Counted from the first letter of the stretch, positions 5,416 through 41,163 are shown. The stretch is DNA of 64,000 nucleotides from an uncultured virus (IMG/VR IMGVR_UViG_3300009838_000017) (IMGVR_UViG_3300009838_000017:1-64000); one strand, 5' to 3'. The notes: generated by a model not told the origin, from the letters alone. Made by a program: numbers and translations.

Positions 5416-5682
5416 GTGATCGAGGTTGTGCTTCAACACCTGGAAAAGCAAGGTCTCTACTACGTGGAGATCCAAGGCATCCCAGGGGTCAAACCCATTG
5501 TGGCCTCAAGGGCAATGAGTCTTGCAAGGGCAGAAAGAAGAAGGGCGGAGATTGAATCCGCCCTTCTTGCATACGCTCAGCCGGGTCACCCTGAAAGTGG
5601 ATCCCCAGCAGCTTCACGCTTCGAGAGGGTGCTGACTCACGACTCGATCCCGCCTACTTGTCATCCCCAAGAATGTGGCTGA
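5416..5682 (+). CDS. Hypothetical protein with SRFERVL motif
   Basis: 88-aa ORF filling the gap between two minus-strand genes. Confidence 0.6.
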   Translation: MIEVVLQHLEKQGLYYVEIQGIPGVKPIVASRAMSLARAERRRAEIESALLAYAQPGHPESGSPAASRFERVLTHDSIPPTCHPQECG

Positions 5683-6817
5683 ACCGGTCCCCACCAGCAG
5701 GTGGGATGGCCTTCCACGAAGTCATGAAGGATTCCTCGACAAGTTCGATGCACAGGTCATCGATCCTGGCCCGGTCAGGCTGCTTTGGAAGGGACGAGGT
5801 CTTCATCAGCTCTTCGAGTTCCTTGTCCTGTTGCTCCGCCCAAGCCACCAGCTCGAAGTAGTCCCAGGCCCCAGCCCGGATCCGAAGAAGCTCTTCCGCA
5901 TCCGGGCGACGAACCAAGACCTTGCCCTCGGTCAGGATCTCCCGACACATTCGGAGTAGGCGAACCAGGTGCATCCCATGCTTCGTGTCGTAGCCGAACT
6001 TCTCTTCGAGCTTGGCCCGGTCCTGGTTCCGGTTCTTCTTCCACTCGTTGTACTGCTGCCACTCTCGAAGGCGAGCCGTGTACTGGCGCTCCTTGTCTAG
6101 TAACTCGATGAAGTTGGTAGACAGGCCCAGGCTGTTTGCTGCTGCCTGCCAGACCTTCTCATCAGTCTGCTCCCAGGACCACTGGGTGATCTCGGTCAGG
6201 CGACGGTAGAACTCATCCTGGATGGCCTGACGCATGGCGGGCTCGATGTTCTCCAGCTCATGCCAGTTCCACTCGTCCAGGCGCTTCTTGATGGCAGAGT
6301 TGGCAGCCGCAAGCTGGTCCCCAGGAATGACTGTCCGCTCGGGAAGTCCGAACTCTCCCCTCGAAGGGGCACCCGTAGGTGGGTTCTTCAGCCACCGGTA
6401 GTGGGTGTTGATCCTCTTGAGCTGAGAAACGGCGTACCCAGAGAAGGTGTGCTTGGCCTTCCGGCTCAAGAACAGGTGCCGATGGTCGATGAGTTTCTGA
6501 CCCAGTTGGCTCGTCAGAAGGTGATCCTCAGGGTCCGTATGCAGCAACTCCAGCACGTTCGGGTTAGCATCCGAAGCCAACCGGAGGAACTTCCGGATCT
6601 CGAAGATGCAGAAGTCTGGCTCCTTCTGGTCCGCCTGCTCGAAAACCTGAGAGAATCCGAGGTAGTAGGTCTTCGGGGCGATGCAGATCCCTCGGATGTC
6701 CACATCCGAGGTTGGGAGACTCGTCCCGTAGGCATGGCTTCCGTGCCTCGTGAGATAGAGCGTCCTGTCAGGGAGCCAGGTGAGATTCCCCTTGTACTCG
6801 TTCCAATCGAAGTTCAT
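5654..6817 (-). CDS. Pol-beta superfamily nucleotidyltransferase (RlaP/YcgL/NrdC.11-like)
   Basis: GSHAYG..TSDVDIRG signature, NPNVLELL, and GYDTKHGMHLVRLL helical C-domain. Confidence 0.85.
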   Translation of the reverse strand: MNFDWNEYKGNLTWLPDRTLYLTRHGSHAYGTSLPTSDVDIRGICIAPKTYYLGFSQVFEQADQKEPDFCIFEIRKFLRLASDANPNVLELLHTDPEDHLLTSQLGQKLIDHRHLFLSRKAKHTFSGYAVSQLKRINTHYRWLKNPPTGAPSRGEFGLPERTVIPGDQLAAANSAIKKRLDEWNWHELENIEPAMRQAIQDEFYRRLTEITQWSWEQTDEKVWQAAANSLGLSTNFIELLDKERQYTARLREWQQYNEWKKNRNQDRAKLEEKFGYDTKHGMHLVRLLRMCREILTEGKVLVRRPDAEELLRIRAGAWDYFELVAWAEQQDKELEELMKTSSLPKQPDRARIDDLCIELVEESFMTSWKAIPPAGGDRFSHILGDDK

Positions 6818-6842
6818 GTGACCTCTTACACCGGAGGGCGGT

Positions 6843-7121
6843 ATGGGAAACGTGTTGTCTCGACGGTTCTACCAAGTTTTGCTGGTAGCTAGCATGGACA
6901 GGGACAAAAGAGCCGAGGAAGTTCGGGATTCCGACGGCAATAAGGTCCCCGCCTGGGCCATTCACGAGAGGTCTCTTCTCCTGACCGAGGTCAACTTGGA
7001 GCGGGAAGCCAAAGGGCTTCAGCCGGTTGGGGCAGAGGACATCAAGAAGGGTGAGTCGGTGGGGCACCCCGAGTATGGTCGGGTCCTAGCCGATCACTGT
7101 GCCTGTCTGGCTTCGGGGTGA
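6843..7121 (+). CDS. Hypothetical protein
   Basis: 92-aa ORF filling the gap; start could be 6894. Confidence 0.6.
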   Translation: MGNVLSRRFYQVLLVASMDRDKRAEEVRDSDGNKVPAWAIHERSLLLTEVNLEREAKGLQPVGAEDIKKGESVGHPEYGRVLADHCACLASG

Positions 7122-7456
7122 AGAAGGTAGAAGCACCCAGGTAGGTAGGGGTGCGGCTTGAATCCCAGCTTGTTCACGAGCATCGAAGGGAGTCGAGGGT
7201 TCAGGACACTCTCGACGTACAGCGATAGGTCCGGGTGATCGACCTTCAGACGGGCCACCAACCGGGTGAGGGTTCCGCTTCCCGGCTTCCGTGCCTCCAT
7301 GTTCGCCAGGTCGAGGAAGGTACGCTCGACCCCATCGATCTTCCGTTGGCTGATCCTCACGTAGAGACCAGAGAACCCTGGCTCTCTGACCCATCCGTTG
7401 TGGGGCCAGGAGACCTTGGCCTGAGCGATAAAGGCATCAAGCGTTGGGAGTCGCAT
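7094..7456 (-). CDS. Putative GNAT-fold protein
   Basis: LDLANMEARKPGSGTLTRL resembles GNAT motif A; C-terminal NP...KLGFK. Confidence 0.5.
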   Translation of the reverse strand: MRLPTLDAFIAQAKVSWPHNGWVREPGFSGLYVRISQRKIDGVERTFLDLANMEARKPGSGTLTRLVARLKVDHPDLSLYVESVLNPRLPSMLVNKLGFKPHPYLPGCFYLLHPEARQAQ

Positions 7457-7467
7457 GAATCGACCTC

Positions 7468-7785: not shown

Positions 7786-8065
7786 TTGCCACCGCCTTCT
7801 CTGCTTCTCCGACTTGTTCGACCAGGTCCTCGTAAATGACCTCGTTGACCAGCAGGTCATCCCAAGTGAATTTGGAGTCGTAGTCGTTGACGTTCCAAAG
7901 CAAGGCCCCGATGGCCTTGACCAGGGTCCAGTGGTACCCGCTCCCCTGGTAGTGCTTGCCCTGAAGGGCAAAGACCCTCATCGCAAGGGCCGGGAGCTGG
8001 GCACCCAGCTCCTTGCGCTTAGCCTGGGTCTCGACTTGGAGAGCGTGAGCTTGAACTTGGTCCAT
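7775..8065 (-). CDS. Hypothetical protein (start revised to ATG 8065)
   Basis: ATG lies 5 nt after a TTGAAA-N15-CGTTGTA element. Confidence 0.65.
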   Translation of the reverse strand: MDQVQAHALQVETQAKRKELGAQLPALAMRVFALQGKHYQGSGYHWTLVKAIGALLWNVNDYDSKFTWDDLLVNEVIYEDLVEQVGEAEKAVASGQ

Positions 8066-8812: not shown

Positions 8813-9223
8813 CTAGCTGACCGAAGCAAGGACCTCGTTGACCTCCAGCTCCTCCTCGTAGGTCAACTCGTTGGGGTCCTCTTCATCGGGGTCGTACCCA
8901 TCCCACCCGCCCCGGTCGTCATCGTCCCGAACGAGGTACCCAGGGTGAAGCCCGTCGTGGATCTCTCGGTGGCACCTACAGCAGACCAGAACGCATTTGT
9001 CCAGCTCTGGCCGGATGGTCTCGAACGCCACCACCCGCTTCGAGATGGTGAAGTCTTTGGTCCTAGGGTCAAAATGATGAAAGTCGAAGGCACTCGGGAA
9101 TCCAGTGTAGCCACAGATGACACACTTGCCCCCCTTGTAGGCGACCGCTTGTTCCCGGAGGGTCTTTCGTCTCTGGTAGGCTTGCTGCCGTTTGACCCAC
9201 TTCTTGTCTAGTTCGGAGACCAC
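8813..9223 (-). CDS. HNH-type endonuclease with acidic tail
   Basis: YKGGKCVICGY...FDFHH.DP...ELDKCVLVCCRCHREIH; probable start GTG 9223. Confidence 0.8.
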   Translation of the reverse strand: MVSELDKKWVKRQQAYQRRKTLREQAVAYKGGKCVICGYTGFPSAFDFHHFDPRTKDFTISKRVVAFETIRPELDKCVLVCCRCHREIHDGLHPGYLVRDDDDRGGWDGYDPDEEDPNELTYEEELEVNEVLASVS

Positions 9224-9270
9224 TCTGACCCGAACGCATAAGAGAATCCTGAGTGGTGTAGGAGACTTCA

Positions 9271-9516
9271 GTGTTGTTCGAGGATGACGGCAGTATCGAG
9301 GCGAGTTGGTACTTTGCCCTGGGAAGGCGGCAACCCCGTCCGCCTCCACCACCTCCGTACCGAGGGCTCCACTGGCAGGCGATCCAGGAGATACAAGCCG
9401 AGGAAGATGCTCGGGTTTTTGCCATTTTGGACGAGATAGCGGGTCCACCTCCGCCTCCTACCCCGCCACCCCCGACCCGGCTGGAAAGAATCGTCACCGA
9501 AAACTTGGCCTGCTGA
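9271..9516 (+). CDS. Proline-rich hypothetical protein
   Basis: 81-aa ORF with AGGAG and TGGTGTA upstream; ends PTRLERIV. Confidence 0.6.
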   Translation: MLFEDDGSIEASWYFALGRRQPRPPPPPPYRGLHWQAIQEIQAEEDARVFAILDEIAGPPPPPTPPPPTRLERIVTENLAC

Positions 9517-12949: not shown

Positions 12950-13590
12950 CCCTTTTCCCCGTATTCCTTGAGGAGAATGGAGTCGATGGTGTCTAGATCC
13001 ACCTCCCCCAAGCAGACCCTCTCAGCCAGTAGCAAGGCTGACCCGATGGGCATCGTCATCATCTGGAGGTTGTGCTTTCGCAGAATCTTCTCCTGCTCCA
13101 GGTGGAAAGGATCCGCTATGTCGTCACGAGGAATGATCTGGGTGGAGTCGCCAAGTCGATGAGGGTGACAGTAGTATGGGTCTGAGATGGCGTAGTAAGC
13201 TCGACAGATCAGTGGCCTTGCGAGGTAGGCCATACAGCGCTTCTTCTCGTTCAAGAGGGGGCATGGGATCATCGAGAGGAGCCACATCTCGTAGGTCGTC
13301 CCGAACTGCTTGTCCGCTGTGGACCTCAACCTCTCCTTGAGTCCGAGGGTCCACTTTCGATGCTTCAGGAGCCACCGGTAGATGAGGATTCCCTCAAGGA
13401 TCGAGATGGCTATTGGGTGGTAACAGCACCAAGCACATCCAGTGCTACAGGTGACCCTAGCCCCGTGCTTGGGGATCTCATCCTGGATTCTTCGCTCGAA
13501 GCTCGAAGCCATATCGTGCCGAAGAACTTCGACCTTTCCGACCGAGTTCTCGACCACTATGGGGAGCTTGCGCTTAGTCGTCATCGTCAT
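12946..13590 (-). CDS. YkgJ-family (CxxCxxCC) cysteine-cluster protein
   Basis: CSTGCAWCC...CPLL...CMAY..RPLICRAY. Confidence 0.85.
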   Translation of the reverse strand: MTMTTKRKLPIVVENSVGKVEVLRHDMASSFERRIQDEIPKHGARVTCSTGCAWCCYHPIAISILEGILIYRWLLKHRKWTLGLKERLRSTADKQFGTTYEMWLLSMIPCPLLNEKKRCMAYLARPLICRAYYAISDPYYCHPHRLGDSTQIIPRDDIADPFHLEQEKILRKHNLQMMTMPIGSALLLAERVCLGEVDLDTIDSILLKEYGEKG

Positions 13591-14128
13591 TGAAGAGTCT
13601 GGTGAATCGGTTCTGTTCGGATGGCCTTGCGGCTGGCGCCCTGGCCTTGGAAACTGCCACCCGGTGAGCCACCGTGCCGAACGTCTTGGGCACGACGATC
13701 CGGATCAAGGACCCACTTCTATGGGTTGCCAACAAGAGCATACCGGGAAGGAGTCGGACCTCGGGTCGAACGAAGAAGGACCCGCCCTCTCTGGCAAAGT
13801 CGCTCGGGACCCAATCCACCCAAGGTTCCAGAACCCTCTCAGAGTCCCTGCCAGGGGGTCCAGGGACAACCAACCTGACGAAAGGACCCGCCCCGCTCTT
13901 GAAGGGAGCAGTCAGCATCGGCCATTGCTTCGGAGGGTTGGCAACAACCCCCAGCTCAGCCGTGTGGGTCCGGTCGAACTCCCGAGGAAGCTCTATCTTC
14001 GACCCATCCAGGCTGTAGAGTGTCATCAGGCGAGCTACCCGGTCGTAGCTCGTGACCAGCCACCGCTTGTCTTGGTACTGAACCAGATCGCCAAGCTCCA
14101 TCAGTTGTTCCCTTGGAGGATGCAACAC
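13574..14128 (-). CDS. Hypothetical protein (start may be 14101)
   Basis: ORF in operon; ends NRFTRLFNDDDD. Confidence 0.65.
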   Translation of the reverse strand: MLHPPREQLMELGDLVQYQDKRWLVTSYDRVARLMTLYSLDGSKIELPREFDRTHTAELGVVANPPKQWPMLTAPFKSGAGPFVRLVVPGPPGRDSERVLEPWVDWVPSDFAREGGSFFVRPEVRLLPGMLLLATHRSGSLIRIVVPKTFGTVAHRVAVSKARAPAARPSEQNRFTRLFNDDDD

Positions 14129-20185: not shown

Positions 20186-20863
20186 TCAGTGAAGCCGAAG
20201 GGACTTCTTGATGTAGGCCAGTTCTTCCTTTCCGAGAGGCTTGCCGTCCTTGCGCTCGATCCAGAGGTGATAGGTGGTGTTGTTCCCCGAGCTGTAGTCT
20301 TCCTCAGCCTGGGAGATGATCCAGTCACGCTTCCCGTCCGGGCTGCTGGAGGACCACTCAAGCCAGGACTTGTCATCCACCGCCTTGAGGACCTCTTCCA
20401 GGGTGTCGTAGGGCTCCGAGCCCTCCTCTTCCCACCCACGATCCTCAGCGTCACCCTCTTCGGCCGACTCCGGGGAGACAACCTCATAGGTCATCTTGTA
20501 GGTGTAGCCCTTCCAAGCCTTCTTGGCCTTCTCATCAAGGCCCTCAAGGTCATCGTCATCCAGGACCACGATGTTCGTGGCTGCTTCCTTGGAATTCCCC
20601 TCACCAAGGTAATCTGGGTTGGCATAGAAGTGCTCTTGGGTCACCTTGCCACGGGTGAGGATCTGGGTCTTGTGCGCCACCTCGGTCCCACGGTCCTTGT
20701 AGTAGGCATCCATGGTCCGCTTCGTGTGGGCATATTCAGGGGAAGGCCAACCAGCGTTGGCGAGCGCCTGCTGGAACTCCTTGAAGGTCACTTCCTTCAA
20801 CCCAGCAGTGCGGGTCGAGGCAGCGTAGCGGGACACTACGTTGGCGATGATCGAAAGGCTCAT
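20186..20863 (-). CDS. Acidic hypothetical protein with ANVVSRY leader
   Basis: 225 aa; AGGAG RBS. Confidence 0.75.
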   Translation of the reverse strand: MSLSIIANVVSRYAASTRTAGLKEVTFKEFQQALANAGWPSPEYAHTKRTMDAYYKDRGTEVAHKTQILTRGKVTQEHFYANPDYLGEGNSKEAATNIVVLDDDDLEGLDEKAKKAWKGYTYKMTYEVVSPESAEEGDAEDRGWEEEGSEPYDTLEEVLKAVDDKSWLEWSSSSPDGKRDWIISQAEEDYSSGNNTTYHLWIERKDGKPLGKEELAYIKKSLRLH

Positions 20864-20949: not shown

Positions 20950-23277
20950 TCACGCCTCTGCTCGCTGCTCCCGAAGAGTGATAACCCCCTGCCCACCATT
21001 CACGGTGTCCTCAGTCACAAGGATCCGCTCGATAGTCTCGTTGCTGGGGGTGTCATAGGCAAAGGTCTTCAGGGTCTTCTCGACGATGCTCCGAAGTGCC
21101 CGTGCCCCAGTTGGGCGCTTCTTGGCTTCCCGAGCGATGGCCCTCAGAGCATCCTCCGTGAAGTCCAGGCAGACACCGTCCATCTGGAACAGGCTCTTCA
21201 CCTGCTTGATGATGCTGTTCCGGGGCTCGGTGAGAACCCGAATCATCTCATCCTCGGAAAGCTCGATGGTCGTGGTGATGACCGGGAGACGGCCCATCAT
21301 CTCGGGAATGATGCCGAACTCCATGATGTCGTCTTCGTTGGCAGCCAGGTAGGAGGCCGACAGGTCGAGCTTCTTCTTCTCTGTGTTGGCCCCAAACCCG
21401 AGACGAGCCGACCCCTTGTTCACCCTCTGGGCCACGATGGGTTCGATCCCAGCAAAGGAACCAGCACAGATGAACAGGATGTTGGTAGTGTCGATGGTGT
21501 CATATGCCATCATCATCCCAGCTTTTCCGCCACCACGGGGGACGTTGACCCTCGAACCTTCGAGGAGCTTGAGGAGGGACTGCTGGACCCCCTCTCCCGA
21601 CACGTCTCGGTACCCAGCCCTGTCCCGGCCAGAACCTCGGGCGATCTTGTCCACCTCATCGAGGAAGATGATCCCCCACTGTGCCCGCTCGATGTCGCCC
21701 CCAGCATCCAGGACGAGCCCCTGAAGAAGGGTCTCCACGTCATCCCCGACGTAGCCAGCCTGGGTCAGCCGGGTGGCGTCACCAACATGGAAGGGGACCT
21801 GAAGCATCCGAGCGATGGTCCTGGCAATGTGAGTCTTGCCCGTATTATGGGTCACAGTGAAGTCGTCAAGCAGGTAACGGTGGTCCCCATCGAGGACAAA
21901 CCCGAAGTATTCCTCCGGGGGTAGGTCACGGGTTTTGAACCCTGTCCGAAGCACATTCTTGATGGCTTTCCGAGCAAGGGCCTTCTTCCTCTCAACCTTG
22001 GTTGGAATCTCAGCCACGTCACCAGAAATGAACATCCGGTAGTAGATGCCCTCCACCCCAGTCTGGCACCCCTTCACACATGGCTGAGGATAGCAAGCAA
22101 AACCAAGGCTTCTAGCGATGAAGGCCAGGTCATCAACAAGCTCTTTGGACTTGTTGATGAAGTCGAAACCACACCCGTCCTCATCAAGGGATCCATCAGT
22201 GTCCAGGAGCCCCGCAAGGATTGCCAGTCGATCTGCTCTGGAGGATACCTTGTAGCAGTGAGGGATGAACTTGGACTCACCCGTCACTTCCAGAAGATCC
22301 AGACCCGCCAACCTCTGTGCAATAGGATTGCGAGAAGCCTCGTCTTGGAGACCACCTGGACCCTCTACCTTACACAGGGCATAGGAGGGGCACTTCTCCT
22401 CATTGTAGTCGTAGATAGAGACGACCAAACCGAAGTTGGCCGCCTGCCTACGAGTTTCCTCAAGGATTTCTGGGTCTTCGGTGGTGACTCGGGGAGTCAC
22501 ACCGAGTGACCCATCACCAAGCAAGACGCCCAGAAAGTATGGGTCCAGTGGTAGCTCCTCCTGTGCTTTGAACTCGACAGGTACACGAAACAGCTTGTGA
22601 ACTGACTTCTGAGTCCTTGACCAACCAAGCCAATCACGAAGGGGTACATCCTTGACCTCGTTTACAGGACGGTACCCAGAACCACCGTTGTAGCAAGTAC
22701 GAACCAGCGTCAGAATGTGCCCCCGGTTGACCACCCAGGGCTCACCCTTGAGGGGCACAATCTCAACCATTTCCTCCACCCCCCTATGAAGTTCCAGCAC
22801 ATTTCGAGGAGTGGAGTCAGGCCCCATGAGTTGGTCCCCAACTTGGACGTTCTCCACCGCTTTCAGGGTACCATCATACATCAAGACAAGCTGACCCTTA
22901 CGATGGCAACCCGATGGCCCAAGGAGCAAGATGTTGCTCTTCTCGATCTCGACCAGATCGATGCCATCCTCAGGCTTGGCGTCCCGGAGCTTCCGACGCT
23001 TGAAGTGGTTGTACACTGCGATTGCAATGTCCACCTTGGCCTGGTCTTGCCCGATCACGTACTGGTCTAGGTAGTCCCGGATCTCCCTCGGCTTGCGAAG
23101 GGGATCCTCTTTCTTCTGCTCGAAGCCACCCCTCTTTGCCCCAGCCTTGATTTCGTTGGCTGCCGTCTCCACACAACGGTTGCAAATGAAGGGGCCAGCC
23201 TCAGAGTCGGCAGCAATGATGTTCTTGACCTCGTTCCGAGGACGGCCACAGAACGAGCACTTGATCGGGCTAGGCAT
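20950..23277 (-). CDS. clpX: ClpX AAA+ unfoldase containing an intein (mature ~420 aa)
   Basis: CSFC..CNRC zinc domain, KSNILLLGPSG/TGKT, GYVGDDVE, FLDEVDKI, RDVSGEGVQQ, LGF loop and TGARALRSI. Confidence 0.93.
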   Translation of the reverse strand: MPSPIKCSFCGRPRNEVKNIIAADSEAGPFICNRCVETAANEIKAGAKRGGFEQKKEDPLRKPREIRDYLDQYVIGQDQAKVDIAIAVYNHFKRRKLRDAKPEDGIDLVEIEKSNILLLGPSGCHRKGQLVLMYDGTLKAVENVQVGDQLMGPDSTPRNVLELHRGVEEMVEIVPLKGEPWVVNRGHILTLVRTCYNGGSGYRPVNEVKDVPLRDWLGWSRTQKSVHKLFRVPVEFKAQEELPLDPYFLGVLLGDGSLGVTPRVTTEDPEILEETRRQAANFGLVVSIYDYNEEKCPSYALCKVEGPGGLQDEASRNPIAQRLAGLDLLEVTGESKFIPHCYKVSSRADRLAILAGLLDTDGSLDEDGCGFDFINKSKELVDDLAFIARSLGFACYPQPCVKGCQTGVEGIYYRMFISGDVAEIPTKVERKKALARKAIKNVLRTGFKTRDLPPEEYFGFVLDGDHRYLLDDFTVTHNTGKTHIARTIARMLQVPFHVGDATRLTQAGYVGDDVETLLQGLVLDAGGDIERAQWGIIFLDEVDKIARGSGRDRAGYRDVSGEGVQQSLLKLLEGSRVNVPRGGGKAGMMMAYDTIDTTNILFICAGSFAGIEPIVAQRVNKGSARLGFGANTEKKKLDLSASYLAANEDDIMEFGIIPEMMGRLPVITTTIELSEDEMIRVLTEPRNSIIKQVKSLFQMDGVCLDFTEDALRAIAREAKKRPTGARALRSIVEKTLKTFAYDTPSNETIERILVTEDTVNGGQGVITLREQRAEA
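21844..22908 (-). mobile_element. Intein with LAGLIDADG endonuclease (355 aa) in the ClpX Walker A
   Basis: Starts CHRKG and ends VTHN, +1 Thr; LGVLLGDG and LAGLLDTDG motifs. Confidence 0.93.
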
Positions 23278-23324
23278 GACCGATCATACACCGGAACGTC
23301 GAGAAACTAGAGGTCGATTCGACA

Positions 23325-24272: not shown

Positions 24273-24532
24273 CAGAGAGGGAGCTTCCTCATCATCATGC
24301 GGAGCTGGTAGGACTCTTTCTGGGCCTTGATCACCACGTCCATGGCCTTCATCACCTGCTGGTAGTAAGGCTTCAGGGTGGCAGGGATCTCGTGCATGGC
24401 ATCCATGCCCAGCTTGAAGTTCACGAGGGCCTGGTATGCTTTGGTGAGGGCCTCATCCGCCTCAGCAGGCTTGCCAACCATCTGGTTGAAGTTCACACCG
24501 GCAGTCGTAGTACGGTCGTAGTCGTGGGGCAT
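24272..24532 (-). CDS. Small helical hypothetical protein
   Basis: ATG 24532 (MPHDYDRTTTAG) directly after the nitrilase stop. Confidence 0.65.
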   Translation of the reverse strand: MPHDYDRTTTAGVNFNQMVGKPAEADEALTKAYQALVNFKLGMDAMHEIPATLKPYYQQVMKAMDVVIKAQKESYQLRMMMRKLPL

Positions 24533-24533
24533 C

Positions 24534-25295
24534 TCAAACCTCTGCGTAGACGATGCAATCAGAACTCCAGACAAGACCCTCACACAGGACCTCGCCGCTC
24601 TTGGTGACGACACAGACTCCACCCTCCCCAAAGTCGTTCGGACCTTCCTGTCCGTAGCGATTGGAGACGATGAGGGTCGCCTTGTTGTCCTCAACGAAGT
24701 CCATCCAGGAGACCGCTGGGAAACCCCCGTCACCCCAGTTGGTCGAGAGGCAAACCACATCGGCATCCCCAGGGGAGTAGAAGTTCTTCCAGTTCTCGTC
24801 CTTCTTGTCCCGGATGTCCCGACAGATGAGCATCCCCACCCGGAGACCCCCAAGACCCTCAGCCGTGATGACTGGAGGATTGGTCTGCCCAGGGGTCGCC
24901 CAGATGTAGTCGTTGCCCCAGCGGTTCACCTTGTCATAGAACTCGAAGTACCCGCTTGGTTCGAGGTATACCTGGCTGTTGAACACCTTGCCGGTCCCAT
25001 AGTCCTTGCGGACCATGCCCCAAACCAAGTGGATGTCGTACTTGCTGGCTAGTGCCCACATGACGTTCATGGTGGAGGTAGGTCCACCCGAACCGGGCTT
25101 GAACTCCGTGATGACCTCAGCGTCAGCTTCCGCTTCCGCCTTGCTCATGTACGTGTAGCCTGTGGTCGCCAGCTCTGGGAGTACGATGAGTTTGGCCCCC
25201 GCCTCAGCCGCCTGAATGACCAGGGTGGCTAGGCGACGTAGATTCTCCGCCTTCTGGCGAAAAACTGGGGCAAACTGAATGGTTGCAACTTGCAT
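24534..25295 (-). CDS. Carbon-nitrogen hydrolase (nitrilase superfamily)
   Basis: Glu-Lys-Cys triad: LPELATTGY, YDK, MLICRD; NRYG.E..F. Confidence 0.9.
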   Translation of the reverse strand: MQVATIQFAPVFRQKAENLRRLATLVIQAAEAGAKLIVLPELATTGYTYMSKAEAEADAEVITEFKPGSGGPTSTMNVMWALASKYDIHLVWGMVRKDYGTGKVFNSQVYLEPSGYFEFYDKVNRWGNDYIWATPGQTNPPVITAEGLGGLRVGMLICRDIRDKKDENWKNFYSPGDADVVCLSTNWGDGGFPAVSWMDFVEDNKATLIVSNRYGQEGPNDFGEGGVCVVTKSGEVLCEGLVWSSDCIVYAEV

Positions 25296-25305
25296 TGAGT
25301 TGGCC

Positions 25306-27084
25306 TCAGCGGAAGGTAGACTTGGCCTTGGCGGTCAGCCTGGACTTGAGCTTCTCCCACATCGAGTTGGGGACTTCCTTCATCCGTCCCTTCATGGCGA
25401 TCTGCCGCTGGATGTTGCCCATACGAGCTGGGCTCAGCTTGCTCAGGCGACCAGCTTCCCAATCACTCAGGATGGAGGTGCAGAAGTCAAGCTCGAAGGT
25501 AGGGGACTTCGAGTTGGGGTTCGGGGTCGCCGTGTAGAGCTTGAACGCACGTTCCACATCGAAGTCGAGCTGGTCACTCATCAGCTCGAAGACCCTCTGG
25601 TTGTTGGTGCTCTTCACCAAGAGGGCAACGTCCTCAACCTCTTTCTGGACGATCTCCAGGGCCTTGGGGTCCCTGGCCCGGATGAGCTTCCCGAAGTCGA
25701 GGATGGAATCGTCACCCATCACATCCGGGTCGATGACCCCATCATCTCCTGCTCGGAGAATGGAGACCTTCACCCCAACCCGGTCCTTGATGGCACCCTC
25801 CAAGGCATAGGTCCCCTGGATGGCATCCACGATAACGTCAACGGCACCCTTGCCCTTGTTCACCGACTGAACGAACTCGATGATCTTGTAGGCGTTCCGT
25901 TGAACGACATTGTCCGAGCTGGCAAGATCCGGGGAGAAGCTGAAGTTGAGGATCTTCGCCACCACCGAGGCTTCGGACTGGATCTTCTCAATGAAGTCAG
26001 GGTCCTCAACTGCCGCCCTGACCTTCTCCAGTTGGGCATCGAAGGTCTTTCGGAGAGCATCAATCCCCTGAGTGATCATGAAGCTCAGGTGCTCATGGGG
26101 CTTGGTGATGGCAATCTCGTTCCGATAGTCGGAGAGGAGTTCTGCCTTCCCGGTATCGCACTTCTTTGCCACGATATCGACCAGCTTGTTCTTGGCAAGA
26201 CTGACCGAACCCCAGGCTCGGGAAAGGGTGTCCGAGGGGAGCCCACAGTCGAAGAGCCTGCTGATCGCAGAGAGAAGGATTTCCAGGTTGGCAGCCTTCT
26301 TCTCGGGGCTACGCTGGTTCATGATGGTGGTGGTGAGCACCCCGATGCCGAACCCAACGAACTTCTGCTTGGCCCGTGTCTTCTCCATGAAGGAGAGAAC
26401 CGGCTTGATGAGAGTCATGGCACTTCGGGCAGCCGCTATCGAGGCGTCCTTCACCTCAAGGTGATTTGCCACCAGGATGACGCTGTTGAGCGACTCCTGG
26501 TACTCCTTGATGTCGAAGTCGGTGGCCCCTCCTGAGACCACCGCAATCCGCCTACGGATCTGGTGCTCGATCTCGAAGACCTTGGTAGCAGCTTCCACCT
26601 GCTCGTCCGTGGCCTCACCCTTCTCCTTCTTCCGAAGGATGTTGAGCTGAGCGACCAAGAGCTTCCGGAGGGCTTCCGGAGATTCGTACCCACCGATCTC
26701 AAGGTAGTTGTGGACGCATTCGCACCCGACAACGAGCCGGGACCCGTTCATCCGGTTCTTGAGCGGGAAGCAGAACTTGATGGGGGTCTTGCCACAGAGC
26801 TGGCAGGACTCACGGGAGATGTATGGGAGCCCATCTCGCCCCCATTCCTTGATGGCTTCGTCGATGTCCTGGGAGGAGGACTCTTCGAGCAACTTTGCCC
26901 TGATCTTGGGCCAGTAGGGTCCGCTCCTGGGGTTTTTCTCCCGACGAATAGCTTCGTCGATGTCAGCCAGACCCTCCTCCAGTTCATCAGCCTCATCCAT
27001 AGCGGGGCTGATGAGGATGTCGTCTCCAAGAGAGGCGGTCAGAACACGGGCTCTCTTACCGGAAGCAGCTAGCAGTAGGAACAT
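25306..27084 (-). CDS. Large hypothetical protein with N-terminal zinc-binding motif
   Basis: CQLCGK...VGCECV; 592 aa. Confidence 0.75.
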   Translation of the reverse strand: MFLLLAASGKRARVLTASLGDDILISPAMDEADELEEGLADIDEAIRREKNPRSGPYWPKIRAKLLEESSSQDIDEAIKEWGRDGLPYISRESCQLCGKTPIKFCFPLKNRMNGSRLVVGCECVHNYLEIGGYESPEALRKLLVAQLNILRKKEKGEATDEQVEAATKVFEIEHQIRRRIAVVSGGATDFDIKEYQESLNSVILVANHLEVKDASIAAARSAMTLIKPVLSFMEKTRAKQKFVGFGIGVLTTTIMNQRSPEKKAANLEILLSAISRLFDCGLPSDTLSRAWGSVSLAKNKLVDIVAKKCDTGKAELLSDYRNEIAITKPHEHLSFMITQGIDALRKTFDAQLEKVRAAVEDPDFIEKIQSEASVVAKILNFSFSPDLASSDNVVQRNAYKIIEFVQSVNKGKGAVDVIVDAIQGTYALEGAIKDRVGVKVSILRAGDDGVIDPDVMGDDSILDFGKLIRARDPKALEIVQKEVEDVALLVKSTNNQRVFELMSDQLDFDVERAFKLYTATPNPNSKSPTFELDFCTSILSDWEAGRLSKLSPARMGNIQRQIAMKGRMKEVPNSMWEKLKSRLTAKAKSTFR

Positions 27085-27147
27085 GAGAAGGTCTCCCTTG
27101 GCACCGTCGTCAGATGGGTCACCAAGGCAAGGCTGATAGAAACCTTC

Positions 27148-27492
27148 TCAGTCGAACTGACGCTCCCAGTAAGGGTCCCCAGGACCCCGGTAAACCTTCG
27201 GCTCCCTCGGGGCAGCAAGGAGTAGGGTAAACGGGACCTTTCCGTTTCTCGACTTCAAGCGCACCAGGCAGTCTGGGCTGATGGTGCCCCGGCCTTCCGA
27301 AAACAGGACCTCAAGAAGGGCTGTGGGGTCGGCACCCACTCTAAACCTCTGGAACTCGGTAGAGCCAACTTTGGTTCGGTCAAGTGACTCGATCCGAGAG
27401 AACGAGTATCCCGAACTGGCTGCTGCCCGAACGACTGCCTCGACCACACGGAGGCTTGTGTTCCCCAAGGTTTCAACTGCGAAGTGCTTCAT
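27148..27492 (-). CDS. Hypothetical protein
   Basis: 114 aa, coupled to DHFR (ATGA). Confidence 0.6.
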   Translation of the reverse strand: MKHFAVETLGNTSLRVVEAVVRAAASSGYSFSRIESLDRTKVGSTEFQRFRVGADPTALLEVLFSEGRGTISPDCLVRLKSRNGKVPFTLLLAAPREPKVYRGPGDPYWERQFD

Positions 27493-28028
27493 GTGCGCCT
27501 ATACCTACAGTGAGTAAGAGTAGTGTCGGCGGGGTTGATTGAGGTCTCCACCACCTTGAACCCTGGCATCCCACAAACGAAAGTGGGGAGCCGGATGACG
27601 TTTGGCTGACTCAACTCAACTACCGAATCCAGGACCAAGGTGAGGTCTACCTCATCAACCAACGGAAATGCCTGCTCATACACCTCCGCCCCACCTACGA
27701 CCCAGACATCCCTCCCAGACCAGTCAACCTTCTCCCAAGTGCCATTGGCCCAATCCAGGTCACGAGCCTTCTTCAGCCCTTCTTCCAAGGAGGGTGCTGT
27801 CACCACGTCTGGCTGGTGGGTCCGACTGAGAACCAGGGTCCGCCTCCCCGGAAGGAACCTACGTCCAATCGAATCCCAAGTCTTTCGACCCATGATGATC
27901 GTTGACCCCATCGTGACCTTCTTGAAGCGCTTCAGGTCCTCGGGCTTCTTCCATGGCATCTGACCATTTACTGCGATGACACCCTGAGGGTTGATCGCAA
28001 CGATGATACGAGGGGGATCAGTCTTCAT
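27489..28028 (-). CDS. folA: Dihydrofolate reductase
   Basis: MPWKKPEDLKRFK, IMGRKTWDSI, LPGR and VVGGAEVY motifs. Confidence 0.93.
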   Translation of the reverse strand: MKTDPPRIIVAINPQGVIAVNGQMPWKKPEDLKRFKKVTMGSTIIMGRKTWDSIGRRFLPGRRTLVLSRTHQPDVVTAPSLEEGLKKARDLDWANGTWEKVDWSGRDVWVVGGAEVYEQAFPLVDEVDLTLVLDSVVELSQPNVIRLPTFVCGMPGFKVVETSINPADTTLTHCRYRRT

Positions 28029-28386
28029 TCAGAATCCTCTCGAACCTACTTGGGTGCGGCCCACTCGGGGGAAGGTACCTTGAGTCCAGCTCCCAGTCCT
28101 CAAGAGAGTCTCCCTCATCATAGGGGCTATCTACTTGAATCTGGTAGACCTTACCCCTGAAGCCTCGGAGCTTTTCCTCTTTGGTGTGGGCGAAGAATCG
28201 AATTTCTCCGCCAGACTTGAACCGCATGAAGTCCTGACCCTCCTGTTGGAGGAGGGCATTGGCTACCGCCTTGCGAGCCTCACCCTTGATCCAAAGGGCT
28301 CGGCTCGTGTGGTGAGCGGTCACAATCACCCGCTCACCACGATTGGCGGCCGAGATGGCTTCATGCAGCATCCTGGCTTGTTTCAT
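28018..28386 (-). CDS. Hypothetical protein, possibly a degenerate P-loop/terminase-like fragment
   Basis: GGEIRFF...EKLRG; ends SRFERILNED. Confidence 0.55.
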   Translation of the reverse strand: MKQARMLHEAISAANRGERVIVTAHHTSRALWIKGEARKAVANALLQQEGQDFMRFKSGGEIRFFAHTKEEKLRGFRGKVYQIQVDSPYDEGDSLEDWELDSRYLPPSGPHPSRFERILNED

Positions 28387-28391: not shown

Positions 28392-29555
28392 TCAGACGGC
28401 CACCTTGAAGTTGATGGCCGGGTGGGGTTCGTAGCCTTCCAGAGTGAAGTGGCTCATGATCTCCTCCGTCGTGACCTTGGGGTCCATCAGGGCTTCGATG
28501 TCCGTCAGGTCCTTGATGGCCGGATCGATAATGAGCTTTGGGAGCGCCTTGGGCTCCCTCTGAAGCTGTTGACGAAGGCCAGGAACGTGGTCGAACTCAG
28601 CCTTGGTCCCGTCTGGCTTGGCCGTGTAGATGTGAGCGTCGATGAGGGTGTGACCGAACGTCCCCACCTCGATCCCGCTCATCTGGGCAAAGAGCTGGAG
28701 CAAGAAGGCGTACCCAGCCAGGTTGTAGGGAACCCCGAGGGCGATGTCACAGCTTCTCTGGGTCAAGTGAAGGCAGAGCTTCTTGACTGGATCCTTGGGC
28801 TTGTCCCCACGCTCCTTCCGGTACCGCTCCTCGTTGTGAGCCATGGGCTTCCGGACCACCAGGGCATCAATGCTCTCCCCGTCAGGCATCCCCTCTGGCT
28901 GGGGGCCGAACTTCGCCAGGGCCTTCTCGTAGGCTTCGTTCTGAGACTTGGCCCAAACGACTCCGAGGTGCTCCGTCCCACAGTGGGAGCTAGCCACAGC
29001 CTCCCAGGGGTCCTCCCCATAGCCCGGCTCATCCATCTGGACGTTGAAGACGTACAGGCAGTGGCAGGGGGGCAGCTTCGAGGTCTGAGCGTTCCCTGGT
29101 GCCCAGGCAGAGACCACCATGCGTCGGCTCATCGGGTTCCGACGCATCTCTTCGAGGACCCACCGGATCTGGTCGTTGTAGCAACCCACCGGGACCTCCC
29201 TTGGGCCAGCCGGGTCGAAGTCCTGCTCGACCATATCCGAGCCGTGAACCGGGAAGTGCCTCCAGAAGTTCCCGTAGGCGCTCGGGACCTTGCCGTTCTC
29301 ATCCGCCCAAGGGTCCCAGAACTTGCAGCCATGACGCTTGAGAATCGAAATATCGGTCTGCCCGGAAAGGAACCACAGGTTCTCGATGACGATGTTCTTC
29401 CACGAAATCGACTTGGTTGTGAGCAGGGGGAACCCCTGACTCATGTCGTGGGAGTAGTTGAAGTTGAAGCAACTGAGGGTGTCAACGCCTGTCCGGTTCT
29501 CCTTCCTGGTACCCAGGGCAAGGACGTGACGAACGAGGTCGAGGTACTGTTTCAT
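28392..29555 (-). CDS. thyA: Thymidylate synthase ThyA with ~80-aa insertion
   Basis: NRTGVDT, FPLLTTK, ENLWF, SRR, LPPCH, QRSCD, GVPYN and DAHIY motifs. Confidence 0.93.
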   Translation of the reverse strand: MKQYLDLVRHVLALGTRKENRTGVDTLSCFNFNYSHDMSQGFPLLTTKSISWKNIVIENLWFLSGQTDISILKRHGCKFWDPWADENGKVPSAYGNFWRHFPVHGSDMVEQDFDPAGPREVPVGCYNDQIRWVLEEMRRNPMSRRMVVSAWAPGNAQTSKLPPCHCLYVFNVQMDEPGYGEDPWEAVASSHCGTEHLGVVWAKSQNEAYEKALAKFGPQPEGMPDGESIDALVVRKPMAHNEERYRKERGDKPKDPVKKLCLHLTQRSCDIALGVPYNLAGYAFLLQLFAQMSGIEVGTFGHTLIDAHIYTAKPDGTKAEFDHVPGLRQQLQREPKALPKLIIDPAIKDLTDIEALMDPKVTTEEIMSHFTLEGYEPHPAINFKVAV

Positions 29556-30307
29556 AGGGGATCCTCTCGGTTGAAGCGGGTGGGGATTTTGGATCGGTCG
29601 ATGGGCTTGGCCTTTGGGACGGCAATGACTTGACTCGGACCCCCATATCGGAACCCGAACTCCTCGTCCTGTACCGGCCAGGTCGCCTTGGCGATGTGTG
29701 CTGAGTACACCCCTTCGGTGAACCCACTAAGGTCGAGGATCAGCCGGGCATGGTGGGTCACAAGTTGGGAGTTGACTCCCCGATCCAAAGGACCACTCCT
29801 CGGGCTCTGGAAGACCATCACCAGGGCACAGTTCTCCAACCGCAACCCCTGAATAGCCGACCCGAGAAACCTAGACCTAGCCGCAATCTGTGGAGCCTGC
29901 CCTGGAGTTGGAGGCAACCCTAGAACGCTGACGGCATCCGCTATGATGAGGTCATACAGGTGAACTGAAGCTCGGATGGCATTGAATAGCCCCACCAGGT
30001 CACTTGGTTGTTGATAATCAAAAGGAGAAGTGTATGAACCTGGAACAACATCGACTGGACCATCAACCCCTACCTCACGGATGAGACTTGAATGTCGGCC
30101 TGGCGGGTTCCCCTCAGCATCACAGAAGAGCACCCGTTGGTGCCCTATGGTTGCTGCATAGTGGGCCAGATGCCGGACCAGAGTTGACTTCCCGGTTCCA
30201 ACCCCGCCACAAATAAGGGTCAAGGCCCCCCGAGGGAACCCTGGACACTCGGTACCCAGGGCAACATCAAGCTCGGCAATGCCTGTTCTGATGTGGGGGA
30301 GTGGCAT
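29552..30307 (-). CDS. RecA/RadA/KaiC-superfamily ATPase
   Basis: TGIAELD.ALG...GFPRG..TLICGGVGTGKST; DLIIAD. Confidence 0.75.
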   Translation of the reverse strand: MPLPHIRTGIAELDVALGTECPGFPRGALTLICGGVGTGKSTLVRHLAHYAATIGHQRVLFCDAEGNPPGRHSSLIREVGVDGPVDVVPGSYTSPFDYQQPSDLVGLFNAIRASVHLYDLIIADAVSVLGLPPTPGQAPQIAARSRFLGSAIQGLRLENCALVMVFQSPRSGPLDRGVNSQLVTHHARLILDLSGFTEGVYSAHIAKATWPVQDEEFGFRYGGPSQVIAVPKAKPIDRSKIPTRFNREDPL

Positions 30308-30857: not shown

Positions 30858-31157
30858 TCACCCTACACCGAAGCGGACCCTCGAACGCTCCAAAGCCTCC
30901 CTCAGCTCAGGCGGGTCCTCATCCTCGTCATCCCCCAGAACGTCATCACGAAGGACCTTCGAGAACCGGTCCTGCTCGGTCTTCCATCCGTGGAATCGGT
31001 GGTCGAGGGCTGCTCGAACCTGCTCCTGTTCCGCTGGGGTCCTGGCCCGTGCGTACATGAGCCGGAACCCCTCGGCCTCTTCAGCCGTCAGAAGGCCCAC
31101 CCGTTGGTAGAGCTGAAGGGAAAGCGTGAGGACTTGCTTGTGCTTCCGGAGCCCCAT
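30858..31157 (-). CDS. Hypothetical protein
   Basis: 99 aa after a CGGTGTA motif; contains DRFSKVL. Confidence 0.65.
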   Translation of the reverse strand: MGLRKHKQVLTLSLQLYQRVGLLTAEEAEGFRLMYARARTPAEQEQVRAALDHRFHGWKTEQDRFSKVLRDDVLGDDEDEDPPELREALERSRVRFGVG

Positions 31158-39700: not shown

Positions 39701-39911
39701 TTGGACTTTGAGCGGAAGGGTTCTCGATCTGCCCAAGGATAAGGGCCAGATCGTCATCATCTTCAGAAGGCGAGGGCAAGGTGGGTACCTGTTCCTGGAG
39801 TGGTAGCTTGGCGAGTACGGACGAGAGGGACAGGGGGACTATCTCTTCCCCCTGAAGCCACTCAGAGATCCCAAGGACCTCCCCAACTGAAAGAAAATCA
39901 CTCAGCGGCAT
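36780..39911 (-). CDS. polA: Family A DNA polymerase with 3'-5' exonuclease
   Basis: ExoI DLETEG, ExoII HAKFD, ExoIII YACSDA; motif A DFAGEELR, motif B RQMGKSANFSLVYG, motif C VHDE. Confidence 0.93.
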   Translation of the reverse strand: MPLSDFLSVGEVLGISEWLQGEEIVPLSLSSVLAKLPLQEQVPTLPSPSEDDDDLALILGQIENPSAQSPTPETEPATAEEDLPLPVDEPQVLQAVPYRNLEEDDDDEPVMTPEAIMESQGTQKEGGAADIVRAWMLYHEFVVVTSVEQLDQIVTEAIKAGRCALDLETEGLDNRIYYRDPNEIRGPIEEYWEDIRPPSVPQTVHKIVGYCLCYDGHTGYYVPVRHSGEDSAKENIDPIEAGKIIKKLCLAAQPVLSPEGAKVDPLASPIFQKPPRVKIYFHHAKFDQEFLFPVTGIDYWHPDSFEDSLLIYYCIFTGDKGLGLKHKSEEKLVVLDKNGTPVRGHILKDHKNPLQEIVKEDPKGGTIPYKMIELKELFLRGRKIDFASLSPEEARRYACSDAICTFLHCDNPVLLSTIRDKKYANTYRLEKQVAQVLRWMERHRIKIDHEYVRSLFTEARAEADGYRQQILELANQMGWANFDPNSTQQLSEFLFNHPSGLNIEPKPDKNEKSGQYKTDADTLEKLVEDHPDINSVLLTIVKYRQVEKVIGTYLEGMLNNCDSNSELRYQFKQTGAPTGRFTAPAGDPEHGYGGIPIHGIPATYDEKKPKVATALRRAFVARDGYTMVKVDFAGEELRIVTNLSKEPVWIKEFNEGTGDLHTITAKAFFGPEITKQQRQMGKSANFSLVYGGGTMAIMRATKCTQQEAARRKANFDKSLPQFAEWVKAQKQKVKKDCGVFTAFGRWMAVPDANSPDKAIAAACERYSLNYPIQGSGADIMKIAMVLLYKEFWRRGWVQNATARFMLTVHDEIVFEVKHEALMEVMPVIEHLMTAPGRMAVPKWDVQLEVEPLLDLHWDPKYDYHKIMKGYIPEKGKKPGKNDIQVGDRWYQPIPKWLEGHITPDYMRSGEKPAPQLPSDPVAPPVQVPTQAPETPKEATPKAPPAPTSVAPSAPVQAQPARPSQVPPKTNGNGKRVDVFSYGLNLLTSDTVRQVASVCIESHDPEGRLLQLYDQSNNEILIDPSQGIRINPDTFKVLMRSKNL

Positions 39912-40344
39912 GGGTCACCACCACTACGTACACCCCTTCTCGCCACAGCCGAACCAACTCAGCAGCAAGACTTCTGGCGTTGGGATCCTCAATGGTTTCA
40001 GGCTCAAAGCACCACGGCATCTTGGGGTGCGTTGGTATGCAGGTCTTTTTCTGGTAGAAGGGGCAGGGATCCCTTCGGTAGCACAGTTGACTTGGGAGCT
40101 TCCGAATCGCCCCCTCAGGGGGGACCCCGAGGGACTTCACCAGGGGACTGGTCCACCCCCGAAGGGCATGGTCCATCGTCTCCTGGGTAACCACAGTCAG
40201 CAGGCCCGTGACTATCTGTCCTTGGAGGGGTAGCCAATCGGACTCCCACTTGTCCCCATACTGGTAGATGAGAAACAACTCTAGGTCCCCCAGCTCCACT
40301 GTTTTGAGCTTCAGTCTCCTAGCCACCTCTTGTCTTCTCCCCAA
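39898..40344 (-). CDS. Hypothetical protein with Cys cluster
   Basis: C....CP......C......PWC; lies between the primase zinc finger and the polymerase. Confidence 0.65.
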   Translation of the reverse strand: MGRRQEVARRLKLKTVELGDLELFLIYQYGDKWESDWLPLQGQIVTGLLTVVTQETMDHALRGWTSPLVKSLGVPPEGAIRKLPSQLCYRRDPCPFYQKKTCIPTHPKMPWCFEPETIEDPNARSLAAELVRLWREGVYVVVVTHAAE

Positions 40345-40951
40345 TCTTGTTGAGGATGAGCTGTACGTTCCTGTCCGCCAGGTCTACGTCAATGAGCCCA
40401 TGCTTCATCTGGTAATGGAGGTTGTCGAGGAGCTTCCCGATGGTGAGGAACCCCTTGAACTGGAAGCTGGGCTTCGCCAACTTCAGCCGTCGCTCACAGA
40501 CCTCCAGCCGGTCCAGAACGGCCTGCTCCTCGTCTGTAGGCCCCCGAGGACCGTAGTCCCGGCTCATGTCCGGAGCCTCGGGGGTGATGATTCCGAAAGC
40601 CTTTTCCAAGCCGAGGAGGACCGCTGTGAACTTCATCTCCGAGTCCCCGTGGAACTCCTTCCACAGACCGAAGATGTCCCACCTCTTCCGACACACCCAG
40701 CAGTAGACCCCCGAGGGACTGTCCCCCTGGGCCGTGTAGATTCGGGCAGAAGGGTCCTTGTCACCGTGGAAGGGGCAACAAATCTGCTCCTCTCGCTCCC
40801 CACTGAACTTCAGGTCAACCCCGAAGTGCCGGAGAACGTCATGAGCAGAGACGCTAGACTTCAGGGTCTCCTTCCGTTGGTTGACCCAGATGAGGTAGGT
40901 CCCCTTCTGCTGGCTATCCTCGTAAGCCTTTCGGAAGTCCTCTTTCTTCAT
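40319..40951 (-). CDS. Stand-alone DnaG-type CHC2 zinc-binding domain protein
   Basis: CCPFHGDKDPSA...YCWVC...DIF; no TOPRIM domain. Confidence 0.8.
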   Translation of the reverse strand: MKKEDFRKAYEDSQQKGTYLIWVNQRKETLKSSVSAHDVLRHFGVDLKFSGEREEQICCPFHGDKDPSARIYTAQGDSPSGVYCWVCRKRWDIFGLWKEFHGDSEMKFTAVLLGLEKAFGIITPEAPDMSRDYGPRGPTDEEQAVLDRLEVCERRLKLAKPSFQFKGFLTIGKLLDNLHYQMKHGLIDVDLADRNVQLILNKIGEKTRGG

Positions 40952-41163
40952 GCACGGTCCACTACCCTCTCGAACCTGGTTGGGGCTGGAACCTCAAGGC
41001 TCGGTGAAATGGGGCCTAGACGAACAATGCGGCAGTCGCAAGTCACGTAGGTAGTCGAAGCAAAGACCGTTCGGGTGTGTCCGTTCTGAGGGTATCCAGG
41101 CACGGGGTCACCGGCCCGAGATACAACCCTCAGGCCGGTCCCCCCACATAGAAGGCAGCTCAT
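40948..41163 (-). CDS. Small zinc-binding hypothetical protein
   Basis: CLLCGGTG...CDC; ends PTRFERVV. Confidence 0.6.
   Translation of the reverse strand: MSCLLCGGTGLRVVSRAGDPVPGYPQNGHTRTVFASTTYVTCDCRIVRLGPISPSLEVPAPTRFERVVDRA

Follow-up and report, generated by a model that had tools for sequence, protein, structure and literature searches.

The first 64,000 nucleotides of the uncultured virus record IMGVR_UViG_3300009838_000017 (positions 1-64000; here called the window) are the first half of a record of 129 kb, which matches part of an IMG/VR phage genome, designated G001, exactly. G001 is 407,078 bp long, has terminal repeats, and is rated 100% complete; position x of the window corresponds to position 303,338 - x of G001, on the opposite strand. 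The window's genes for replication and nucleotide metabolism, as assigned with Pfam, include those for a family-A DNA polymerase, an intein-bearing DnaB, a primase zinc ribbon, and an SNF2 helicase, together with ThyA, DHFR, RNase HII, a Dam methylase, an RlaP-type nucleotidyltransferase, an intein-split ClpX, a Ycf46-like AAA+ protein, and a vWA protein. An earlier note on this DNA had pointed to a short peptide, x-R-F-x-R-I/V-L, shared as a C-terminal tag by 'eight unrelated proteins' of the window, and had proposed that it docks them on one hub. The number proves to be an understatement: about 20 or more proteins of G001 carry the tag, and in one relative the tagged share of the proteome reaches a tenth.

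G001 belongs with phages of 230-530 kb, a clade delimited by a common capsid-family protein. Two relatives recur below, G004 (512,571 bp with terminal repeats, and a polymerase 70% identical to that of G001) and G016 (435,218 bp). LR745208.1, a distantly related huge phage with a polymerase 30% identical, serves as a more remote comparison.

Results

The tag in the window

A sequence check places all eight peptides in frame, two on the plus strand and six on the minus strand, and their arginine codons vary as had been claimed. On the minus strand, DRFSHIL (5669-5689), followed by GDDK and the stop codon, forms the C-terminus of the RlaP-type nucleotidyltransferase (5654-6817; Pfam RlaP, E=7e-25), whose PHROG match is likewise a nucleotidyltransferase. 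NRFTRLFN (13589-13612), followed by DDDD (NRFTRLFNDDDD-stop), ends a 184-aa protein (13574-14128) of a family conserved in the clade, and SRFERIL (28030-28050), followed by NED, ends a 122-aa protein (28018-28386) in PSRFERILNED-stop. TRFNREDPL-stop (29555-29581) is the C-terminus of a RecA/KaiC-like ATPase (29552-30307) and represents a second form of the tag. DRFSKVL (30951-30971), followed by RDD, lies 30 residues ahead of the stop of a 99-aa protein (30858-31157), and TRFERVV (40960-40980), followed by DRA, ends a 71-aa CxxC protein (40948-41163; PTRFERVVDRA-stop) encoded between the DnaB and primase zinc-ribbon genes.

The two plus-strand instances are SRFERVL (5614-5634), 15 residues ahead of the stop of an 88-aa open reading frame (ORF; 5416-5682), and TRLERIV (9475-9495), which follows a poly-Pro linker and lies 6 residues ahead of the stop of an 81-aa ORF (9271-9516; PTRLERIVTENLAC-stop). 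The latter ORF also contains an 18-residue stretch 72% identical to the capsid-family protein (E=0.001). It overlaps 178 bases of the annotated 5' start region of an HNH gene (8813-9448, minus strand); the HNH domain begins at residue 109, and the HNH gene may therefore start later than the longest ORF indicates. By a crude measure of coding potential, the codon-usage score, the ORFs at 5416-5682 (-5.0), 9271-9516 (-4.3) and 40948-41163 (-4.8) are negative, and these three of the eight consequently fall outside the G001 gene set counted below. The status of 5416-5682 as a gene rests mainly on its tag.

Enrichment and position of the tag in G001

The G001 gene set comprises 451 genes called by a simple codon-usage score, and 444 proteins were used for counts of C-terminal tails. 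Compared with 100 residue shuffles of the 451 genes, the pattern [STDN]RF.[RHK][ILV][ILVF] is strongly over-represented, with 12 matches (shuffle mean 0.43, maximum 3), as is RF.[RHK][ILV][ILVF] followed by two acidic residues, with 8 matches (mean 0.05, maximum 2). Eight of ten control motifs (permuted, reversed or substituted) gave 0-2 matches in the same genes; RL.R[IV][LV], which has Leu for Phe and is itself a tag variant, gave 4, and RF.K[IV][LV] gave 2. A blind scan of G001 tails for gapped four-residue patterns ranked the RFER class second by p value, with occurrences in 16 of 444 tails versus 1.57 expected, and the eight patterns at the top of the scan all correspond to this tag. The looser pattern R[FYW][DESTN][RHK] lies within the last 25 residues of 22 of the 444 proteins, at a density of 19.8 per 10,000 residues in tails versus 3.1 in bodies.

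The proposal of a C-terminal tag thus holds as a genome-wide enrichment in G001, but not as a rule of strict terminality, as some instances are N-terminal and others lie in internal linkers. G001 carriers outside the window include a kinase, with the tag in an N-terminal linker; an SNF2 helicase, with the tag between its two helicase lobes; a glucosaminidase; a DUF3268 zinc-ribbon protein; and several proteins without assigned function. In most carriers, though not in all, the tag is C-terminal. Tagged genes lie among early or replication-type genes, and none is located in the structural module at roughly 113-256 kb of G001.

Selection on the peptide

Twenty-five aligned tails from G001, G004 and other contigs were used to examine composition and codon usage. 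The description of a Pro-rich linker ahead of the tag and acidic residues behind it is accurate: Pro occupies position -2 in 11 of the 25 tails, and an acidic residue (Asp or Glu) fills the first and second positions behind RFxRIL-x in 24 and 23 tails, respectively. At the first, invariant Arg the codons are AGG (8), CGG (7), CGA (4), CGC (2), CGT (2) and AGA (2). At the second conserved position 24 tails have Arg, again with six codons in use, and one has His; four Leu and three Ile codons are found at the Leu and Ile positions. Synonymous codons therefore vary freely at invariant residues, as selection at the protein level would have it and a DNA repeat would not.

This diversity bears directly on whether the tag is a functional protein motif at all. 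The alternatives are chance, inheritance of a common C-terminal segment, and a signal at the DNA level (a terminator, promoter or ribosome-binding site at gene ends). GAGAGG encodes Glu-Arg in three of the window's tags, and in 28018-28386 and 29552-30307 the tag lies over the ribosome-binding site of the next gene, its codons adjoining or overlapping that gene's start. The ATPase tag is doubly constrained, because its final codons run into the ATG of thyA (28392-29555) and include GAGGA, the likely ribosome-binding site of that gene. Nonetheless, the tag of the nucleotidyltransferase has no same-strand gene downstream for about 290 bases, which together with the codon diversity argues for selection on the peptide; the enrichment far exceeds that of shuffles and reversed-pattern controls; and the bodies of the tagged proteins are unrelated. 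A ribosome-binding-site origin, prompted by the three GAGAGG instances, is ruled out by the codon diversity, and an explanation of the tag without any functional protein motif is extremely improbable.

Conservation in related phages

Related phages retain the tag while the linkers ahead of it diverge, and the conservation expected of a functional motif is thus borne out. In pairs of G001 and G004 orthologues with 34-54% identity, the tag is kept in four of four, with linkers differing in length, in sequence and by indels; one G001 copy ends PTRFERIR-stop. The G004 orthologue of 28018-28386 is 40% identical over the full alignment (34% in the BLASTP alignment) and keeps RFERIL behind a linker with indels. 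A strict back-translated tag pattern matches G004 13 times, versus once for its reversed control; all 13 instances lie 3-7 residues from a stop, with the consensus P-T-R-F-E-R-I-L-x-[DE]-[DE]. An exact DNA-pattern scan for TRFERIL-x-[DE][DE] across all 2.9 million IMG/VR contigs found only 15 sites in 13 stretches, which belong to G004 and four further contigs. The six that are not in G004 also lie near a stop, at a distance of 3-6 residues in five cases and 18 in one.

The earlier note had suggested checking whether cellular homologues lack the tail. For the nucleotidyltransferase, distant homologues align to residues 11-380 of 387 only, and the one in LR745208.1 ends without a tag.

The 184-aa protein provides the broadest view of a single carrier. 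It has 27 homologues in a large protein collection, and all 26 complete tails are tagged, with R-[FYL]-x-[RKH]-[ILVM]-[LMI] behind a variable Ala/Pro/Lys-rich linker. The family is found in 15 of 18 large clade records, and the tag is present on 15 of 15 copies. Its sequence changes from genome to genome (NRFTRLF, NRFSRIL, NRFDRMM, TRFSRLK, SRFTREADD), other copies having NAFSRLL, TAFDRIM, TAYDHLL, SVYDQLM, TTLDRLM and EQIDRIL. An AlphaFold2 model predicts an all-beta body, with a predicted local distance difference test score (pLDDT) above 90 for most of residues 1-140, followed by a tail (pLDDT 56-64) in which the tag forms a short helix. A Foldseek search of the body against the Protein Data Bank gave nothing at E <=0.001, only weak matches resembling tandem SH3, Tudor or KOW domains.

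A second form and genome-specific versions

The ending of the RecA/KaiC-like ATPase, PTRFNREDPL-stop, might be taken for a decayed tag, but it matches the build of the G016 consensus, P-[ST]-R-F-[DE]-R-[DE]-E-[VP]-[LI]-stop (the RF[DE]R-DEVL-stop type), and is therefore regarded as a second form. In G016, the last 25 residues contain R-[FYW]-[DE]-[RK] in 54 of 510 proteins (42.4 per 10,000 residues in tails versus 3.1 in bodies), and most of these 54 tails have an aliphatic terminal residue. There are 5 further matches to RF[DE]R-acidic-acidic-[VP]-[LIV] in G001, 12 matches in G004 and 38 in G016, with none in LR745208.1 and none in any of the reversed controls. Strict DNA patterns are too narrow to serve as a census of the tag, as G016 scored 0 and 1 with them despite its 54 tagged proteins.

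At 385648-401851 and 23069-28327, G016 has arrays of 8-17 adjacent genes (encoding about 125-185 aa) that all end in RF[DE]R-DEVL-stop. Paralogy was considered as the origin of these arrays and set aside, since two carrier pairs tested, including neighbours in one array, can be aligned in the tag only.

Other genomes have their own versions. G001 and G004 share TRFERIL-x-DD; G010 has LDRIL in 9 of 559 tails (6.4 versus 0.4 per 10,000 residues, tail versus body), with 11 instances when read by eye; G011 has R-x-[ST]-x-W-Q-x-[LI] in 6 of 387 tails (6.2 versus 1.1); and G019, in its first 324 kb, has [WY]-[DE..]-[RH]-[LI]-L in 10 of 335 tails (11.9 versus 1.2). In LR745208.1 all five tag patterns are at background, and a blind tail scan yields no coherent pattern.

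That all tags of a genome change together points to a single reader co-evolving with them. Taken with the enrichment, the protein-level selection, and the conservation behind divergent linkers, it supports the proposal of a short linear docking motif, and we consider it very probable that the peptide is a functional tag with one reader. In a tagged protein, a body that varies is joined through a flexible linker, often rich in Pro, to a constant peptide of 8-11 residues, which in this phage reads [PS]-[ST]-R-F-[ED]-R followed by [IV]-L-x-[DE]-[DE] or by [DE]-[DE]-[VP]-[LIV]-stop. One protein would recognize this peptide and co-evolve with it.

The genome-specific versions also raise the prospect that the reader is a host protein (a protease, chaperone, polymerase or division protein), with tag versions varying with the host. 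The genomes whose versions differ range from about 50% to 65% G+C, which may mean different hosts, and the placement of tagged genes among early or replication-type genes would suit a host target. A scan of GTDB, with one genome per species and for the exact TRFERIL-x-[DE][DE] version only, speaks against it: 30 stretches were found versus about 26 estimated by chance, 19 of them in frame as the peptide. Most lie within folded enzymes, and a stop follows within 6 residues in only four. No host protein family with this one version emerged from the scan, and mimicry of a host protein by the exact tag was rejected, the number of matches being about that of chance. A reader supplied by the host seems to us rather unlikely.

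Two of the stop-near GTDB matches are on small, phage-like contigs (L090 and L094) of one Candidatus Omnitrophota bin. ORFs on these small bacterial-bin contigs end in PTRFERILEED-stop and PTRFERILSEEGDA-stop, and one tail is nearly the same as that of the phage contig L054. Also listed with the bacterial-bin matches is L086, a 454-kb contig of a deltaproteobacterial bin. These contigs are probably phage DNA binned with a bacterium, and possibly hint at a host.

Carriers and the capsid-family protein

Many of the G004 carriers are small Cys-rich proteins. Two proteins contain two tags each, an 81-aa protein of G004 (243801-244103) and a 267-aa protein of G010 (232006-232809); both hold tandem copies of their own genome's tag and are apparently disordered. 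Bivalent adaptors are one possible role for them, competition with the reader another, and their existence fits a dimeric or multimeric reader.

One G001 carrier beyond the window (342822-343697) repeats residues 1-74 of the capsid-family protein at 53% identity, and its tag is kept in the G004 and G005 orthologues. Nearby, a 258-aa gene with a capsid-family fragment (G001 339812-340588, minus strand) ends just upstream of a short out-of-frame reading frame ending RSRFERILYEEV-stop; a frameshift, or an error in the sequence, may have split a single tagged gene at 339718-340588 (minus strand).

The capsid-family protein itself (290 aa, G001 133118-133990, also beyond the window) keeps 92-94% identity in G010 and G011, against 30-60% for most other proteins there, and is unusually frozen within a fast-evolving clade. 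IMG/VR contains at least 586 relatives, of which the best 80 are 93-100% identical.

Together with the capsid-family fragments on two or three tagged proteins, the build of the carriers invites the explanation that the tag is a cargo or packaging label that binds the procapsid interior (scaffold, portal or capsid), so that enzymes and effectors are injected with the DNA. Body, linker, and a terminal, occasionally N-terminal or doubled, peptide recall the encapsulin cargo-peptide build, and the glucosaminidase, kinase and nucleotidyltransferase are plausible as injected proteins. However, the tags of G001, G010 and G011 differ at most positions while the capsid-family protein is near-invariant among these three genomes, which makes it an unlikely co-evolving reader, although a scaffold that evolves fast might still fill the role. 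In G001, moreover, the structural module is free of tagged genes. Overall, packaging is an unlikely function for the tag.

ClpX as a candidate reader

ClpX, encoded in the window (20950-23277, minus strand) and also the first hub named in the earlier note, is the leading candidate for the reader, although we advance it only tentatively. It has a C4 zinc-finger N-domain (Pfam zf-C4_ClpX, E=5.8e-11) and an AAA+ module (AAA_2) split by an intein (Hint, LAGLIDADG). Of 16 large clade records, 14 contain the ClpX zinc finger, among them 7 of the 7 that are at least 90% complete, and ClpX is present in all six records with the 184-aa family. ClpP was not found in G001 or G004, and the G004 ClpX has an MGF tripeptide at what we take to be the place of the ClpP-docking loop of cellular ClpX. 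ClpX is favoured because its zinc-finger domain is of the adaptor-docking kind, it is a core gene, and the phage has no ClpP of its own; the SspB-like build of the tagged proteins, the two-tag proteins and the aliphatic-ending form of the tag point the same way.

On this proposal ClpX would read the tag through its N-terminal zinc-finger domain, and the aliphatic-ending form perhaps also through its pore. Tagged clients would be unfolded, or destroyed on schedule with host ClpP, while tagged adaptors would, like SspB, pass a bound partner to ClpX; the carrier with the copy of capsid-family residues 1-74 would be an example.

Directly upstream of clpX lies the gene for a 315-aa protein with an HExxH motif (HELGH; 23325-24272, minus strand), which has a 68% identical copy in G010 and a homologue also upstream of clpX in G004. 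This protein may be a partner of ClpX. An N-terminal leader that the earlier note mentions, M-D-P-I-..-V-..-R-Y-..-V-A-R-R-F-x-A, occurs at 23325-24272, 3919-5361 and 20186-20863 (all minus strand), and heads two HExxH proteins (HELGH at residue 231 and HEIGH at residue 267) that are likely zinc metalloproteases without a Pfam match. The intein is variable among relatives: ClpX has no intein (412-455 aa) in G008-G011 and several other relatives, and is about 780-795 aa long in G001, G004 and G015. In G001, inteins with LAGLIDADG endonuclease domains split ClpX, DnaB (window 41172-43931, minus strand), and a metallophosphatase (G001 100679-103066).

Several observations weigh against ClpX. It is near-universal in large clade genomes, so that its co-occurrence with tags says little, and LR745208.1, which lacks both ClpX and tags, is distant and hence confounded by descent. 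The ClpX zinc-finger domain is fairly conserved, whereas the tags differ. The RFERIL-x-DD tags are not classical C-terminal degrons, because they have acidic ends and some are N-terminal or internal, and a helicase and a nucleotidyltransferase would be odd clients for destruction. Furthermore, the tag has a residue between its hydrophobic and basic positions and is unlike LKxh, the peptide consensus of the E. coli ClpX zinc-binding domain reported in PMC7226468. The phage ClpX may have its own peptide specificity. An apparent covariation between ClpX and tag type, in which a Glu follows the second CxxC in 6 of 7 RF-type genomes versus 0 of 7 others, was discounted, as the position was picked by eye and follows phylogeny.

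The co-evolving reader could instead be another phage hub to whose machinery the tag recruits proteins, the candidates being a CheY-like receiver protein, one of three other AAA+ ATPases, the vWA protein, and a DnaN-like clamp. The genes for all of these are present in G001. The receiver recurs in G004, with three copies, in G005, and weakly in G010; a divergent DnaN-like ORF, along with clamp-loader subunits, is conserved in G010; and the vWA and Ycf46-like AAA+ proteins, both encoded by core genes, share 48-51% identity with their G010 and G011 counterparts. Grooves are commonly plugged by a helix of the type hydrophobic-x-x-hydrophobic-hydrophobic with acidic residues behind it, and the metal site of a vWA domain could take up acidic residues. 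Yet no candidate is singled out, and the receiver was not found in G008, G009 or G011, records that are fragments. As for a clamp, the bacterial beta-clamp motif, QL[SD]LF or QLxLxL on replication and repair enzymes, does not match the tag, which has no Gln and a different hydrophobic spacing, and the tails of the phage DNA polymerase, RNase HII and DnaB have no tag, although replication enzymes should be the ones to bear a clamp motif. We regard a hub of this kind as rather unlikely, on a par with a host reader.

Finally, the tag could signal a covalent step, either trimming or modification, by papain-like proteases, HExxH proteases or R2K-type ATP-grasp ligases. G001 encodes three Peptidase_C1 and two R2K ATP-grasp proteins, the window has two HExxH proteins, and RimK-type ligases are known to extend acidic C-termini. 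No link by neighbourhood or sequence is seen between these enzymes and the tagged genes, however, and some tags are internal or N-terminal; a covalent step is very unlikely.

Discussion

The general principle, that the clients of one hub share a short docking peptide, is already known from clamp tails, the SspB tail and cargo peptides. The SspB tethering adaptors of ClpXP consist, as PMC9963277 describes them, of a substrate-binding domain, a disordered linker, and a short C-terminal ClpX-binding segment. The phage carriers resemble them in having a folded body, a flexible linker, and a short terminal peptide (as in the model of the 184-aa protein and in the linker indels), in the ClpX with a zinc-finger N-domain encoded beside several tagged genes, and in the existence of two-tag proteins. 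They differ in that dozens of unrelated bodies carry the peptide rather than one adaptor, and in a core that reads hydrophobic-x-[RH]-[IL]-[LM] or RF[DE]R rather than the LKxh of the E. coli domain.

The ssrA degron offers a second comparison, as a short C-terminal peptide; in RF[DE]R-DEVL-stop the phage tag likewise ends in an aliphatic residue at a fixed distance from the stop. The ssrA peptide is added by tmRNA, though, while the phage tag is encoded in each gene, and the dominant form in the window ends in Asp or Glu and may be internal or N-terminal.

In the phages T4 and RB69, a handful of replication and transcription proteins have C-terminal tails that bind the sliding clamp. There too, unrelated proteins share a short hydrophobic and acidic tail, and the T4 hub is phage-encoded. 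Here 20-54 proteins per genome are involved, most of them small and without assigned function, together with non-replisome enzymes, and the polymerase is untagged. The T4 capsid-targeting sequence, which is N-terminal and cleaved, and the encapsulin cargo peptides are similar as short address peptides joined by a flexible linker to unrelated cargo, with the difference that here a near-invariant capsid-family protein accompanies fast-changing tags.

Full-text searches, which did not extend to most subscription journals, turned up no published description of a proteome-wide, concertedly evolving phage tag. What is new here is the clade-wide view, the two forms of the tag, and the argument from concerted variation.

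A more ambitious extension, which we regard as speculative and rather unlikely, is a programmable viral protein-targeting system, in which modular receptors, making up as much as a tenth of the proteome, would be wired to ClpX by an address tag that co-evolves rapidly. The small and variable binding bodies would be zinc ribbons, SH3-like barrels, capsid-protein decoy fragments, and some enzymes, and ClpX would work with host ClpP or with the adjacent HExxH protease. Such a system, if real, would be a viral counterpart of the F-box and SOCS-box receptor families, removing or remodelling selected host and phage proteins in the course of infection.

A tag on 20-54 unrelated proteins per genome would add an organizational layer to the biology of huge phages, in a clade that, judging from the at least 586 capsid-family relatives, reaches hundreds of environmental contigs. 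Dozens of proteins without assigned function become a single question, namely what reads the tag, and the peptide, alone or fused to reporters, offers a direct experimental handle on it. Should the reader be ClpX, these phages would possess virus-encoded targeted unfolding or degradation with a library of receptors, relevant to the conflict between phage and host and potentially useful as a tool.

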